NCBI GenBank assembly: GCA_003140595.1
Contig: PLKG01000132.1
Span: 271-63,354, forward strand
Source: Acidimicrobiaceae bacterium
GTDB lineage: Bacteria; Actinomycetota; Acidimicrobiia; Acidimicrobiales; Bog-793
Length of the DNA stretch: 63,084 bases
Direction: 5' to 3'
Shown here: positions 28,712 to 38,057 of the stretch, piece by piece
Layout: each line of letters begins with the position of its first letter
Position numbering within the stretch: position 1 is the stretch's first letter
Translations under genes and position numbers: made by a program
Notes under the pieces: generated by a model
The model's input: only the letters and a program-made list of their open reading frames with translations
What the model was told of the DNA's origin: nothing
Database searches by the model: none

Positions 28712-30478
28712 TCACGATTGCCTTGACAGGACCGCCCGCACGTCCCTGATCGCCTCGCGGGCCGCCCCGTCCTCGGCGTGCCGGCGATCCTGCTCGGCCT
28801 CGGCCTCTTGACGCATCGCCATGGCCCTCCGGGCAGCCTCGGCGACCGAGGTCGCAGTACGGTCCATCTCCGCGGCCATCGCCTTCTCGAAGCGAATCCG
28901 CGCCGCGTCGAGTCGTCGTGCCAGGTCAGAACGTGCCCGTCCGGCATGCTTTTCAAGTTCGTCGCCGAGCCGGGCGAGAGCTTTCCGAACGACGATGCGC
29001 CGCGCCGCGCGCCTGGGCAGTAGCCACAAGATGAGCCGCACAACAGTGTCGCCCGGCGCCTCGACCCAAAGCACGAGGGAGAAGAACCGCTCTCTCTCTT
29101 CGCGTACTGCTCCCAGCCTCACCTGCGGCAGAAAGACCTCGAACAGGCCGGACGCGAGCCTTCGCAGCTCGTTGACCCGAACCTCTGTCTTAAGACGCAG
29201 GCGCTCGGCGACCTCCCGCCAGGCGGCGTCGACCACGTCGGTCTCCTCGGCGCGCACCGTCTCGAAGCCCTCGCCGATCGCCTGGGTGACGAGATGGTGC
29301 AGCTCGTTCTCCAGCCGCGAAAAGGGCACAGACTCAGCGAGGCTTTGCATTCTCGGCGCCCATTCGGCCTCGACCCGCCGGGCGACACGTGAGAGGTCGG
29401 ATGCCACACGCTCGCTCACGCCAGCAAGGTCGCGGGCAAACAGGAGTCGCTCGTCGGCGAAGGCTCGTCCCTCCTCAAAGGCGGCGAGGCGGAATCGCTC
29501 AGCCCGTTCGGCGATCGCGTCGACATCGAACTTGAGCGCTGCCTCCCCGAGGTCGAGTGCCTCCTCGAGGTCGCCGGCGAGGCGAGCGAGCTCGTGGCGC
29601 GCCGTCTCCAGTCCGGCTCGGGCCATGTCGGTTCTCACAAAGCGCGACAGCTCTTGCTCGAAATCCCCGAACTCGCCCGCTTCGACTCCGGGCTCCCTCC
29701 CAGACTGGCGGGCCTTAAGAGCGGGAAGCGCAGCCAGGCAGAAGAGCCGCACCGGCCGTCCTAGCTGCGCCGCGACGGCCGCGGAGACGAAACTTCGCAT
29801 CTGGTCAAGCTCGTCGAGGTTCAGATGATCGATCTTGTTGAGGACGAAGAACGTGGGCGATCCGCGCTCGGCCAGGCTCTCCGACAGAAGGCGCTCTCGC
29901 TCGGAGAACGGCGCGTCGGCGGACAGGACTACCACGGCCGCGTCCGTCTCCTTGAGTGCCAGGCCTGCGATCAGATCGCTGTGACCGTGGAGCGAACCGA
30001 CGCCCGGCGTGTCGACGAGCACGAGCCCCGATGCGAGAAGTGGAACCTCGCGCTGCACTTCGACTCTGGCGATCCGGCGCGTGTTGGCCGGGTTGGCGGA
30101 CTCAGTGACGAAGTCGGCAAGGTCCTCCTCGATTCGGAGAAGGCGGCGCGAACCGTCAGCTTGGACGATCGTCGTCCCGGGTGGGCCGAAAGAGATCTCG
30201 GTCGGGACCGCGGTCACCGGGACGACTCCGGTGGGCAACAACGCCTCGCCGACGAGCGCGTCGAGCAACGTCGACTTCCCGTGCTTGAACTCGCCCAGCA
30301 CCGAGACATGGAACCGGTGCTCCGCGAGGCGGGCGCCGACACGCGAGGCTCCACGCATCACCTCGCCATGGGCTGGCCCAGCTCCTTGTGCGAGAGTTGC
30401 ACAGGCCCTCTCAAGCTCGGCTCGGTCTTCGCCGAACTCCGGCATGACCGCTGCGGATCGGTTCGTCATCAGTGCCAT
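28712..30478 (-). CDS. Bacterial dynamin-like GTPase
   Basis: GEFKHGKST (G1), PVTAVPT (G2), DTPG (G3), NKID (G4), helical C-terminus; overlaps the upstream stop. Confidence 0.85.
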   Translation of the reverse strand: MALMTNRSAAVMPEFGEDRAELERACATLAQGAGPAHGEVMRGASRVGARLAEHRFHVSVLGEFKHGKSTLLDALVGEALLPTGVVPVTAVPTEISFGPPGTTIVQADGSRRLLRIEEDLADFVTESANPANTRRIARVEVQREVPLLASGLVLVDTPGVGSLHGHSDLIAGLALKETDAAVVVLSADAPFSERERLLSESLAERGSPTFFVLNKIDHLNLDELDQMRSFVSAAVAAQLGRPVRLFCLAALPALKARQSGREPGVEAGEFGDFEQELSRFVRTDMARAGLETARHELARLAGDLEEALDLGEAALKFDVDAIAERAERFRLAAFEEGRAFADERLLFARDLAGVSERVASDLSRVARRVEAEWAPRMQSLAESVPFSRLENELHHLVTQAIGEGFETVRAEETDVVDAAWREVAERLRLKTEVRVNELRRLASGLFEVFLPQVRLGAVREERERFFSLVLWVEAPGDTVVRLILWLLPRRAARRIVVRKALARLGDELEKHAGRARSDLARRLDAARIRFEKAMAAEMDRTATSVAEAARRAMAMRQEAEAEQDRRHAEDGAAREAIRDVRAVLSRQS

Positions 30479-32514
30479 GCCGCGACTGCGGCCAGCACGG
30501 CGAGCAGAGCGACGAGCATGTAGGCGATATAGGCGTCGAGGCGCCCGGACTGTAGGCGTTTGGCGTGGCGAGCGAACAGGAGCCAGAGCGCCCGAGCCGG
30601 GCGGTAGAGGTAGGCCTCGGCGGGCTCGACGACGCTCATGATGACCTCGAGACGGGTGCCATCAGCGGGCTCGTCGGTGCCAGGGGTGCCGGACGGCTCG
30701 ACGACTTCCGAGGCGTGACTCGCCCCGAGCACGTTGCCAAGCACGTGACGCAGCACATTCGCGTACCCGAAGGCGCTGTAGCGATCCGGCCCCGCTACAG
30801 CCGGGCTCGCAGAGCGCCAGGCAGGAACTCGCCGCACACGGAGGAACCGGCCCCGCGAAAGCACCAAGGTGGCGAGCGCCACGGCGAAAAAGGCGATCGG
30901 CAACTCGACCATCAGCCACGAAGGCGAGAGGATCGAGAAGCCGGAGAACACCGGCTGGAGCACCCAGGGAGACTTGAGGGCCTGCAAACTCGCAGAGGCC
31001 GGGACGATCGGCGTCAGCCCGCGAGCCAGGAACCTCACGACGAAGGGGGCTACGGCCGAAAGGCCGATGGACGAGACTGCGAGCAGGACAAGCCCGGCCT
31101 TGCCGGCAAGTCCGCCACCATCCGCGAGATCCTTGTCCGGTGCGGTCCGGACGGCTCGACCGAGCACCGCAAAGCCGATCAGGCGGACGAAGGCGAATGC
31201 GGCGACTCCGGTCGTAAGCGCCACGAGGGCTCCGGCGCCAGCCATCGCGAGTCGAAGTGCCAGGGCGTGGAGGCGGAACTCCTGCAGGAGCGCCTCGAGG
31301 AGGAACCACTCCGAGACGAATCCGATGGTCGGTGGGAGCCCCGCGAGGCTGAGCGAGCCGAGGGCGAAGGCGGCTCCGCTGACCGGTGTCCGTCGTCCGG
31401 CGCCACGCAGGGTCTCGAGATCGTCCGAATCGTTGTCGGAGGTGATGAACCCAGCCGATGCATAGAGGCCTGACTTGGCAACGCCATGGGCAAGAACCTG
31501 TAAGCTTGCTGCAAGAAGCCCCACTGCGGTGATCTCCGGGCGGCCGCTCGCGGCTCCCGCGAGCGCCACTCCGTAGCCGACGACGATGATGCCGGCATTC
31601 TCGACGCTCGAGTAGGCGATCGCGCGGTTCAGGCGTGACTGCACTGCCGCAAAGGAGATCCCGACCAGAGCTGTCACGCCTCCGAGCACGAGGACCGTCA
31701 CGACCAGCCAGATGGGAGGACGGCCGAGGATCCCGAGAAAGCGCCAGAGCCCGTAGAAACCGGCGTTGACGGCCAGCCCCGCCATGGCCGCCCGGGTCGG
31801 GCCCCTAGCCGCGGCGTAGCCGAGGGGCAACCAGACCTGGAACGGTAGAAGGCCCACCTTGGCGCCGAAGCCGACGACGACGAGAACGAAGGCGGCGTCG
31901 TGAAACGCGCCCGCGGGGACGTGACTCCAAGCACTCATGGTGAGAGTCCCGCTGTGGCCGGCAAGAAGCAGAAAGGCGAACAGCAGTGCCGCCCCGCTCG
32001 CCTTGCCCATGGCGAGTGTCACCCAGCTGGCCCGGGCATTGGCTTTGTCGGCACGACGGGCACCGACGAGGATGTAGAAGGCCAGGGTCATTGTCTCCCA
32101 GCCGAAGAGGAACGTGAACGCGTCCCCGGCGACAAGCACGACGGTGACCGCGCCCAGGAGCAGCAGGTAGCCGGCGGCGGTCCCCCGTCGCGCGACCCGG
32201 CCCACTGGCCGAGCCCAACCGACAAGACAGGCGGAAAGCGCTGCCGCAAGACCGCCGGTGAGCGTCAGGAAAAGCCCGGCCAGCGCGTCGAGGCGGACCG
32301 ACGTGCGGCCGACGCCGAACCCCGCGCCGAGGAAGACCACCCCCTCGGGGCGGTAGACAGCAAGCACGCCCGCCGCCGCCACGAGCGCGCCGCCGAGGAG
32401 ACCCGTCACAAAGGGGAACACCCGGACCAACGCCGTGTCGGCACCGGAGACGAGAGCGACAAGCGCACCCAGCGCCCAAAGGCAGAGCGCGGCGACGAGC
32501 AACGCGCCGATCAT
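30469..32514 (-). CDS. HyfB/MrpD-like proton-translocating membrane subunit of an Ehr-like complex
   Basis: FLFGWE, GFGAKVGLLPFQVWLP, AYSSVEN, HGVAKS, GLPPTIGFVSEW; ATGA overlap at 32514. Confidence 0.85.
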   Translation of the reverse strand: MIGALLVAALCLWALGALVALVSGADTALVRVFPFVTGLLGGALVAAAGVLAVYRPEGVVFLGAGFGVGRTSVRLDALAGLFLTLTGGLAAALSACLVGWARPVGRVARRGTAAGYLLLLGAVTVVLVAGDAFTFLFGWETMTLAFYILVGARRADKANARASWVTLAMGKASGAALLFAFLLLAGHSGTLTMSAWSHVPAGAFHDAAFVLVVVGFGAKVGLLPFQVWLPLGYAAARGPTRAAMAGLAVNAGFYGLWRFLGILGRPPIWLVVTVLVLGGVTALVGISFAAVQSRLNRAIAYSSVENAGIIVVGYGVALAGAASGRPEITAVGLLAASLQVLAHGVAKSGLYASAGFITSDNDSDDLETLRGAGRRTPVSGAAFALGSLSLAGLPPTIGFVSEWFLLEALLQEFRLHALALRLAMAGAGALVALTTGVAAFAFVRLIGFAVLGRAVRTAPDKDLADGGGLAGKAGLVLLAVSSIGLSAVAPFVVRFLARGLTPIVPASASLQALKSPWVLQPVFSGFSILSPSWLMVELPIAFFAVALATLVLSRGRFLRVRRVPAWRSASPAVAGPDRYSAFGYANVLRHVLGNVLGASHASEVVEPSGTPGTDEPADGTRLEVIMSVVEPAEAYLYRPARALWLLFARHAKRLQSGRLDAYIAYMLVALLAVLAAVAAWH

Positions 32515-38045: not shown

Positions 38046-38051
38046 CTGGCG

Positions 38052-38057
38052 ATTATA
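38052..38057 (-). promoter_or_regulatory. -10 element TATAAT for the riboswitch/Ehr operon
   Basis: Perfect TATAAT 6 nt before the aptamer 5' end. Confidence 0.7.

Follow-up and report, generated by a model that had tools for sequence, protein, structure and literature searches.

A 63,084-nt stretch of contig PLKG01000132.1 (hereafter the window), from a peat Acidimicrobiales metagenome-assembled genome (3.52 Mb, 171 contigs, 94% complete; G000), carries seven genes on its minus strand, running from position 37922 to 28712, behind a leader that resembles a fluoride riboswitch. We conclude with high confidence from the sequence that this operon is controlled by a fluoride riboswitch and encodes an Ehr-type complex, a relative of complex I and of the group-4 hydrogenases that is not itself a hydrogenase. 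With the same confidence, the predicted complex can be placed in a large, conserved actinobacterial subfamily in which a ferredoxin-NuoB fusion protein carries Asp, Glu, Asp and Ser (D/E/D/S) instead of the proximal-cluster cysteines. Gene identities were taken from Pfam and NCBIfam profile matches. For comparison, 80 related loci were collected with the ferredoxin-NuoB protein as query and then gene-mapped; L- and G-numbers are labels for related loci and genomes. The fluoride riboswitch family RF01734 was searched for in 50 of the genomes behind these loci, with four distant homologues as controls.

The operon opens with a HyfC/HycD/NuoH-like membrane subunit of 321 aa (36957..37922; PF00146, 115 bits) and a HyfE-like membrane subunit of 224 aa (36282..36956) whose match to NF008556 (76.6 bits) stays below the cut-off of 136. 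These are followed by a HyfF-like antiporter-like subunit of 484 aa (34825..36279; PF00361, 166 bits), a HyfG/HycE/NuoCD-like large subunit of 501 aa without NiFe ligands (33323..34828), a ferredoxin remnant fused to a NuoB/HycG-like domain (270 aa, 32511..33323), the latter two both recognized by Pfam/NCBIfam profiles, and a HyfB-like antiporter-like subunit of 681 aa (30469..32514; NF005086, 382 bits). The last gene encodes a bacterial dynamin-like GTPase of 588 aa (28712..30478; PF00350) and overlaps the HyfB-like gene by 10 nt. A first-pass annotation of the sequence had described the seven genes as tightly coupled, and this is what the junctions show, the largest gap being 2 nt and overlaps not exceeding 10 nt. 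The order of the six core genes recurs in 41 of the 53 closest loci, and 11 of the loci without the full order are cut by contig ends. For the same six genes, ratios of non-synonymous to synonymous substitution (dN/dS) of 0.05-0.30 indicate purifying selection when compared to five or six relatives at dS values of 0.76-1.30, near saturation; the pseudogene-like ratios that would have spoken against the first-pass proposal are not observed. A few loci depart from this organization: tblastn matches for the first two genes are absent from L052, where crcB-like open reading frames (ORFs) sit instead, the best HyfG match in L035 spans residues 1-250 only, and L097 appears degenerate, with mixed D/C/D/S ligands and a truncated HyfG alignment.

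In NiFe hydrogenases, the cysteines of the large subunit that ligate the metals lie in the motif RxCGxC...DPCxxC. In the window, R202-V-E204-G-T-A207 stands opposite the RxCGxC of HycE and MbhL, and the 13 residues at the C-terminus are free of cysteine. All 49 clade large subunits have E204, and NiFe cysteines occupy the aligned columns in none of the 73 large-subunit homologues examined. When the small subunit is compared to HycG (E. coli) and MbhJ (P. furiosus), D149 and E152 fall opposite the CxxC cysteines, D216 opposite the cysteine of GxCxxxGG and S246 opposite that of GCPP. A count of such cysteine-less small subunits across genomes, proposed at first pass, shows D/E/D/S to be nearly invariant among 52 clade proteins (D149 in 52, E152 in 51, D216 in 50, S246 in 51), and all four cysteines to be kept in 20 of 22 more distant homologues. 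Among the 120 nearest database proteins, GSDG[SAT][ED]E occurs in 119, PGSPP in 115 and CxxCxxC in 119; their source names read "Ni,Fe-hydrogenase III small subunit/ferredoxin", "ferredoxin" or "NADH:ubiquinone oxidoreductase". The NuoB-like subunit of Streptacidiphilus sp. 4-A2 (L082) has an Arg at the D216 position, and Thermoplasmata archaea (L098-L100, L111 and L092) have the same gene order with the NuoB cysteines kept. Conservation of D/E/D/S, together with the low dN/dS, argues for replacement of the cluster and not for decay, and the window's clade is predicted to have lost the proximal cluster N2 and to have gained a conserved carboxylate cluster. The absence of NiFe and proximal Fe-S ligands noticed at first pass was therefore borne out (E204/A207 and D149/E152/D216/S246). 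The label "redox-degenerate" applied to the complex at the same time holds for these sites but not for the ferredoxin domain, in which C60, followed by a proline, and C79xxC82xxC85 are invariant in the clade. These four cysteines are enough for one [4Fe-4S] cluster, which, by the usual ferredoxin rule, we take them to ligate.

With all four NiFe cysteines and all four proximal-cluster cysteines replaced, the earlier statement that the complex cannot be a hydrogenase stands. The verdict is drawn from the ligands only, because the genome encodes HypD (G000:C145:83746-84789) and a genuine NiFe hydrogenase elsewhere; an argument from missing maturation genes was dropped for this reason, and the ligands are absent from the complex even so. 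The large subunit of that genuine hydrogenase is encoded at G000:C26:3690-4919. Replacement of the N2 ligands also sets the complex apart from respiratory complex I (NDH-1), and the full complex-I/group-4-like set, in which the large subunit has no NiFe cysteines, places it among the Ehr complexes, the founding paper of which is said to be that of Marreiros et al. in 2013.

The leader contains a variant of the fluoride aptamer (37956..38044, minus strand) that standard searches miss. No family reached its score when the window was scanned with Rfam at gathering thresholds. RF01734, for which this threshold is 34 bits, was matched below it, at 18.4 bits in a permissive scan (E 0.017 for 701 nt) and at 17.9 bits in the whole-genome scan. 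The Rfam alignment forces a 42-nt insertion into P1 and is wrong in detail when compared to a direct reading of the sequence, according to which P1 is formed by UCGGA (38040-38044) with UCCGG (38029-38033) and closed by the loop UGAGGC (38034-38039). An extra hairpin of 48 nt (37981-38028) lies between P1 and P2 and is followed by the junction GAAC (AACU occupying 37977-37980), by P2 (GCCC, 37973-37976, with GGGC, 37966-37969), by CUGAUG (37961-37966) and by the pseudoknot strand GCCUC (37956-37960), complementary to the P1 loop. The low score of the window leader is explained by the inserted hairpin: leaders of this Acidimicrobiales type, in which hairpin length is variable, score 17-32 bits, and Pseudonocardiaceae-type leaders without the insertion pass the Rfam threshold. 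An RF01734 match lies directly 5' of the first gene in 43 of the 50 genomes searched, with 13 orthologous leaders scoring at least 34 bits (34.4-47.3 bits), and upstream of the first gene in none of the four distant controls. The architecture parses in the window and in all 40 clade leaders, and L042, L050 and L073, clade leaders without an RF01734 match, still conform to it. A 26.2-bit match is also found directly upstream of the first gene in the archaeal locus L098.

Across 46 aligned leaders, P1 and the pseudoknot covary and show 95.6% pairing, compensatory changes on both sides being seen in seven of the ten P1/pseudoknot pairs; none of 500 shuffles matched the observed pairing, and controls with slid partners pair at 34-56%. 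The core of P2, GAUG and CU.AUG is also present, with invariant columns G7 A8 T9 G10 and C82 T83 A85. A greedy search recovered a P2 helix of at least 4 bp in 38/46 leaders; since it sometimes picks an alternative 5' strand, it was not used as a covariation test. The fluoride aptamer proposed at first pass is upheld by the architecture, the covariation and the orthologous leaders: judged on these grounds, the leader is a genuine fluoride aptamer, for which fluoride binding and switching are predicted. The sole other candidate in the window's own genome, a 14.8-bit match on contig C168, lacks the core motifs and was discarded as noise, and no second aptamer was detected in permissive scans of positions 27300-28800 and 39300-40100.

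The expression platform (37920..37960, minus strand) was delineated from a consensus fold of 27 short-spacer leaders and from the minimum-energy fold of the window leader. The strand GCCUCUGCGC (37951-37960) can pair with GCGUGGAGGC (37928-37937), inside which lies the Shine-Dalgarno sequence GGAGG (37929-37933), and the GUG start codon follows at 37920-37922. In the consensus fold, GCCUCUAC pairs with GUGGAGG of the Shine-Dalgarno region, and the window leader's own minimum-energy fold gives the same sequestering helix (z = -3.0). The terminator scan revealed no terminator-like site on the coding (minus) strand. That the pseudoknot strand has two alternative partners points to a translational ON switch. 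In the absence of fluoride, GCCUCUGCGC would pair with the Shine-Dalgarno region; in its presence, GCCUC would be captured in the aptamer pseudoknot, freeing the Shine-Dalgarno sequence for translation of HyfC, which the tightly overlapping downstream genes would follow. Fluoride would thereby induce translation of the operon.

The TATAAT hexamer reported upstream of the aptamer is literally present (38052..38057, minus strand) and may represent a -10 box; a consensus promoter scan returned 0 promoter-like sites and no -35 partner for it. In four studies, contigs assembled from RNA libraries span the leader and some of the operon, and segments without such contigs were not counted as evidence of anything. 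Metatranscriptome contigs from four libraries, one per study, run from the 3' end of the upstream enolase gene through the aptamer into the 5' part of HyfC (37636-38272 and 37639-38284 are examples), TATAAT being bridged as well; if they are truly RNA and not carried-over DNA, some transcription would enter from upstream. One contig (X17) skips 65 nt within the enolase gene (38281-38347), an observation restricted to this single contig, the shorter side of which measures 25 nt.

The two antiporter-like subunits had been described as intact, and this proved correct except at one central position. When aligned with NuoM, NdhD, MbhH, HycC and MrpA, both keep the Glu of transmembrane helix (TM) 5, the Lys of TM7, the His/Lys of TM11 and the Glu of TM12, as do 50-51 of 51 clade sequences for each subunit (E130, K218, H333, K337 and E392 in the HyfF-like subunit; E140, K219, H343, K347 and E402 in the HyfB-like subunit). 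The central Lys of TM8 is lost in both, the position being T249 in the former and N250 in the latter. In HyfF-like proteins this position is variable within the clade (A36, T7, N4, V3, S1) and is not Lys in 26 of 27 distant homologues either. In HyfB-like proteins it is Asn in 48/51 clade members and Lys in 14 of 22 distant relatives that retain the cysteines. The LPDAH motif of the HyfB-like subunit reads LPLGY in the window and LPxxY in the clade, with Y in 49/51 clade sequences and H in 19/22 distant ones. The clade thus displays what reads as a concerted, conserved set of changes that affects both the peripheral site and the ion path.

No Fluc or CLC-F gene had been seen in the window, which is correct, and the search can be extended: the genome as a whole, which is 94% complete, yielded neither CrcB nor CLC. 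CrcB is likewise encoded by 0/8 of the nearest operon-bearing genomes. A complementary distribution of operon and CrcB was nevertheless rejected, as few genomes of the genus encode CrcB (2 of 20), with or without the operon, and overall it occurs in 21 of 46 operon-bearing genomes. Nor does the lack of an exporter extend beyond the window's genome, since CLC genes, counted irrespective of specificity, are found in 43/46 operon-bearing genomes. In seven loci, crcB pairs adjoin the operon, some of them behind their own aptamer (for instance in L043 and L069), which argues against simple redundancy with the exporter.

Within the genus, a recurrent aptamer of ca. 71 nt (22-29 bits) precedes a 395-aa gene of the Na+/H+-exchanger family PF00999 (L154-L159 and L161, in G012, G013, G015, G001, G018, G008 and G020); the gene is in two pieces in G008 and G019 and has an internal TAG in G009. 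Of the 17 genus genomes that lack the operon, 12 have this riboswitch-linked gene, which is absent from all four operon-bearing ones (G000, G010, G016 and G017). Other PF00999 genes exist in 33 of the 46 operon-bearing genomes (two identical to G010 and G017) and follow an aptamer match in 0/46, as judged by eye from contig numbers and coordinates, with no script; the nearest case is a divergent PF00999 gene in G074, 423 nt from a weak RF01734 match. Where a 2024 review ranks riboswitch-associated genes, Na+/H+ antiporters come as the second most common class.

These observations lead us to propose, tentatively and with a chance that we set a little short of even, that the complex is a redox-independent, Mrp-like ion- and proton-translocating device serving pH and ion homeostasis under hydrogen fluoride (HF) influx. 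It would no longer carry out redox chemistry at the NuoB/NuoD interface and would act like a multisubunit secondary cation/proton machine of the Mrp type, holding cytoplasmic pH and ion balance as HF leaks in, a task shared with the Na+/H+ exchangers that riboswitches control in sister genomes. The carboxylate site made up of D149, E152, D216 and large-subunit E204 could then bind or gate cations or protons in place of N2. Taken together, the comparative hints lean towards defence of pH and of the proton-motive force (PMF) over fluoride export. Several points weigh against the homeostasis proposal. With the TM8 Lys gone from both antiporter-like subunits, the canonical proton relay would be altered. 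Mrp itself has no NuoH, NuoB or NuoCD homologues, and the strong conservation of the peripheral arm, the four-cysteine motif and the D/E/D/S site is not readily accounted for by a simple antiporter. The aptamer is also found in relatives that share the gene order and retain the cysteines (L094 with 47.3 bits, L108, L112, L090 and archaeal L098), so that the link to fluoride is older than, and does not depend on, the loss of N2. The genus-level exclusivity of operon and antiporter may reflect a single event among kin; the specific PF00999 orthologue is absent from all 46 operon-bearing genomes but is taxonomically narrow, and the 46-genome comparison had no matched control. Finally, the RNA-library contigs may contain DNA.

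Four other explanations were weighed, two of which address the nature of the operon. A genuine formate hydrogenlyase or hydrogenase-4, induced by fluoride in a shift to fermentation, could be argued from the source names of the nearest proteins, from the presence of HypD in the genome and from the way in which the 2024 review, in its discussion of this association, interprets it; it is refuted at the ligand level, neither NiFe nor proximal-cluster cysteines being present, the operon contains no FdhF, HyfA, HyfH or HycI genes, and we consider it hardly credible. That the operon is a decaying relic, or the aptamer a chance match, is also extremely improbable: the sub-threshold Rfam score, the degenerate-looking L097 and the partial HyfG match of L035 would fit, and are opposed by the dN/dS values, by the invariance of the replaced residues, by covariation of the aptamer and by orthologous leaders above threshold.

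The other two concern function. If the complex itself extruded F-, HF or a metal-fluoride, driven by the PMF through its antiporter-like subunits, it would be the main defence of cells without Fluc or CLC-F. This would suit the window's genome, which has neither CrcB nor CLC and in which the present aptamer is the only credible one for fluoride, as well as the 0/8 count for CrcB in its nearest operon-bearing relatives; polar Asn/Thr residues at TM8 and the remodelled interface show a changed ion pathway. It is opposed by the rarity of CrcB in the genus regardless of the operon and by the CLC genes of most operon-bearing genomes, and CrcB in 21/46 of these with crcB pairs beside seven operons means co-occurrence, not replacement; a carboxylate-rich site would moreover repel F- unless bridged by metal, and no anion-selective feature was identified. 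We regard export as unlikely and rank it as weaker than pH and ion homeostasis. A redox-driven ion pump, in which the [4Fe-4S] cluster would take electrons from ferredoxin and hand them on to quinone or to another centre, such as a mononuclear metal at D/E/D/S, and so restore the PMF under fluoride stress, appears improbable as well. The four invariant cysteines of the ferredoxin domain speak for it, and so do the cysteine-retaining relatives that share gene order and aptamer and keep the N2 ligands; a precedent would be MBS (6u8y), a relative without NiFe in which catalysis presumably takes place at the proximal cluster. Against such a pump stand the near-invariant replacement of all four N2 ligands, the lack of any electron-input module in the operon beyond the single remnant motif, and the absence of NiFe ligands from all 73 large subunits. 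A more elaborate reading, that of a new kind of complex-I-derived machine for fluoride defence, is similarly doubtful: the former N2/NiFe pocket would have become a conserved carboxylate metal site (D149, E152, D216, S246 and E204) handling metal-fluoride or gating ion flow in response to it, as a PMF-coupled principal fluoride resistance in peat Actinomycetota without Fluc/CLC-F, with the dynamin as a co-regulated membrane-repair partner. The remaining probability falls to functions not named here.

The dynamin was included in the system at first pass, and the comparison does not support this. The protein is a dynamin-like GTPase (PF00350, 85.1 bits for a cut-off of 27) with readable G1 (GEFKHGKS), G3 (DTPG) and G4 (NKID) motifs. 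Its proposed co-occurrence count shows that a dynamin gene follows the operon immediately, in the same orientation, only in the window, L038 and L083 (with a truncated copy in L037), and that one lies anywhere in the flanks in 15 of 54 clade loci; the dynamin is not a conserved component. In genus genomes without the operon, aptamers of 40-46 bits directly precede the dynamin orthologue (L152/G003:C55, L153/G007:C83 and L160/G006:C2), and the window protein is 48% identical over its full length to the G003 dynamin, preceded by a 45.6-bit aptamer. A dynamin behind its own aptamer also occurs in L045 (42.4 bits) and L073, and units composed of an aptamer, two MutS_V genes and a dynamin are found in L069 (50.2 bits) and apparently in L051 (38.8 bits); L084 has an aptamer with a MutS_V pair (44.9 bits), the dynamin there following a further aptamer-phosphatase unit. 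The dynamin is best described as a gene of the fluoride regulon that has joined the operon locally. The paired ATPases with MutS domain V, of ca. 510-540 aa, adjoin the Ehr operon (L045:11409-16573; L069, G066:C26:30908-30968 and downstream; L051, L073 and L084), and no MutS_V gene was found in the window's genome.

Other neighbours also suggest that the locus is a fluoride island, with a second enolase, a universal stress protein and a histidine phosphatase. The second enolase copy (38114..39460, minus strand; PF00113/PF03952) lies directly upstream of the leader and ends 57 nt before the TATAAT box, the other copy being at G000:C13:2334-3182; no aptamer was found in front of the window enolase. 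An enolase is located upstream in L035 and L037 as well. The gene for the universal stress protein (28188..28670, plus strand; PF00582) is convergent with the dynamin, and its homologue in L036 sits behind a 37-bit fluoride aptamer, with a 92-aa ORF without Pfam match (12989-13267, plus strand) in between. An ORF on the minus strand (28122-28622) was rejected as a shadow of this gene; shadow ORFs of the high-GC DNA blurred the clustering of neighbouring ORFs in general. The histidine phosphatase His_Phos_1 (27361..28080, minus strand, start approximate; PF00300) has counterparts behind their own aptamers in L043 (41.6 bits), L069 (46.6 bits) and L084 (32.3 bits), and in G001 and G012 a 41.6-bit aptamer occurs ca. 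1.9 kb upstream of such a gene. Upstream of the enolase, a 697-aa ORF (39992-42085, plus strand) has no Pfam match. In the isolate Streptacidiphilus sp. 4-A2, nine RF01734 matches and crcB pairs were found in ca. 40 kb around the operon (L082; G077:C4:6708092-6747824). The proposal of a fluoride-response system is sustained by these regulon neighbours and by conservation of the aptamer across Actinomycetota.

The description of the system as a candidate new one was overstated, the link between the riboswitch and "formate hydrogen lyase" having been in print since 2012. The relevant part of the 2024 review lists "formate hydrogen lyase" among the commonest enzymes associated with fluoride riboswitches, citing Baker et al. 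2012, and reads the association as anaerobic metabolism or a shift to fermentation. At least in these Actinomycetota, the annotated enzyme is not a hydrogenase and thus says nothing on such a shift. In the main texts covered, no paper was found that recognizes the complex as devoid of NiFe or of N2, or that links a dynamin to fluoride; the supplementary gene lists of Baker et al. may already hold these operons. An Ehr subfamily is now tied to a defined signal, fluoride, through a ligand-specific riboswitch, and the insertion-bearing aptamer class defined here is one that the Rfam threshold misses. The fluoride regulon gains a dynamin-like GTPase and MutS_V ATPase pairs, the near-invariant D/E/D/S and the Lys-to-Asn change in HyfB offer concrete targets for mutation, and the data suggest a mechanism of coping with fluoride that is not yet accounted for.

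When compared to known systems, the leader shares with RF01734 the P1 helix, the pseudoknot between loop and 3' tail, P2, the invariant GAUG and CU.AUG and translational control by Shine-Dalgarno sequestration, and differs, in its Acidimicrobiales type, by the variable-length hairpin added between P1 and GAAC. The dynamin has the GTPase domain (Dynamin_N), the size (ca. 590 aa) and the G1, G3 and G4 motifs of bacterial dynamin-like proteins, such as DynA, IniA and LeoA, and differs from these by belonging to the fluoride regulon. For Ehr complexes, exemplified by Rv0082-Rv0087 of M. tuberculosis, the function is stated to be undetermined in the passage of PMC6728331 that deals with them. Rv0082-Rv0087 comprise the same group-4/complex I homologues with a large subunit lacking NiFe cysteines, whereas in the window the NuoB-like subunit, joined to a ferredoxin remnant, has lost the four cluster ligands as well. 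The window order, C-E-F-G-(Fd)I-B, is unlike that of Rv0082-87, which we take to be small subunit, HyfB and then the rest, as in the distant loci L102-L109; the latter keep the cysteines and lack the aptamer. The best structural matches to E. coli formate hydrogenlyase/hydrogenase-4 (7z0s) are HycG (114 bits), HycE (146.5 bits) and HycC (113.8 bits), and the subunit types are the same, but the window complex lacks the NiFe site, the proximal cluster and the HycB/HycF/FdhF electron wire, and Asn replaces the TM8 Lys in HyfB. MBH and MBS of P. furiosus (6cfw, 6u8y) are modular complex-I relatives, with MbhJ, MbhL and MbhH among the best matches; unlike the window complex, both are driven by ferredoxin, retain the proximal cluster and have a NuoI-like subunit with two clusters. 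The Mrp antiporter (6z16), finally, shares the pair of Proton_antipo_M subunits, including the TM5 Glu, the TM7 Lys and the acidic/basic residues of TM12, and needs no redox drive; MrpB, E, F and G are absent here, NuoH-, NuoB- and NuoCD-like genes are present next to membrane subunits of the antiporter-like and HyfE-like kinds only, and the TM8 Lys of MrpA is missing. As the MrpA-G set is not found, the likeness to Mrp is claimed for the way of working only.

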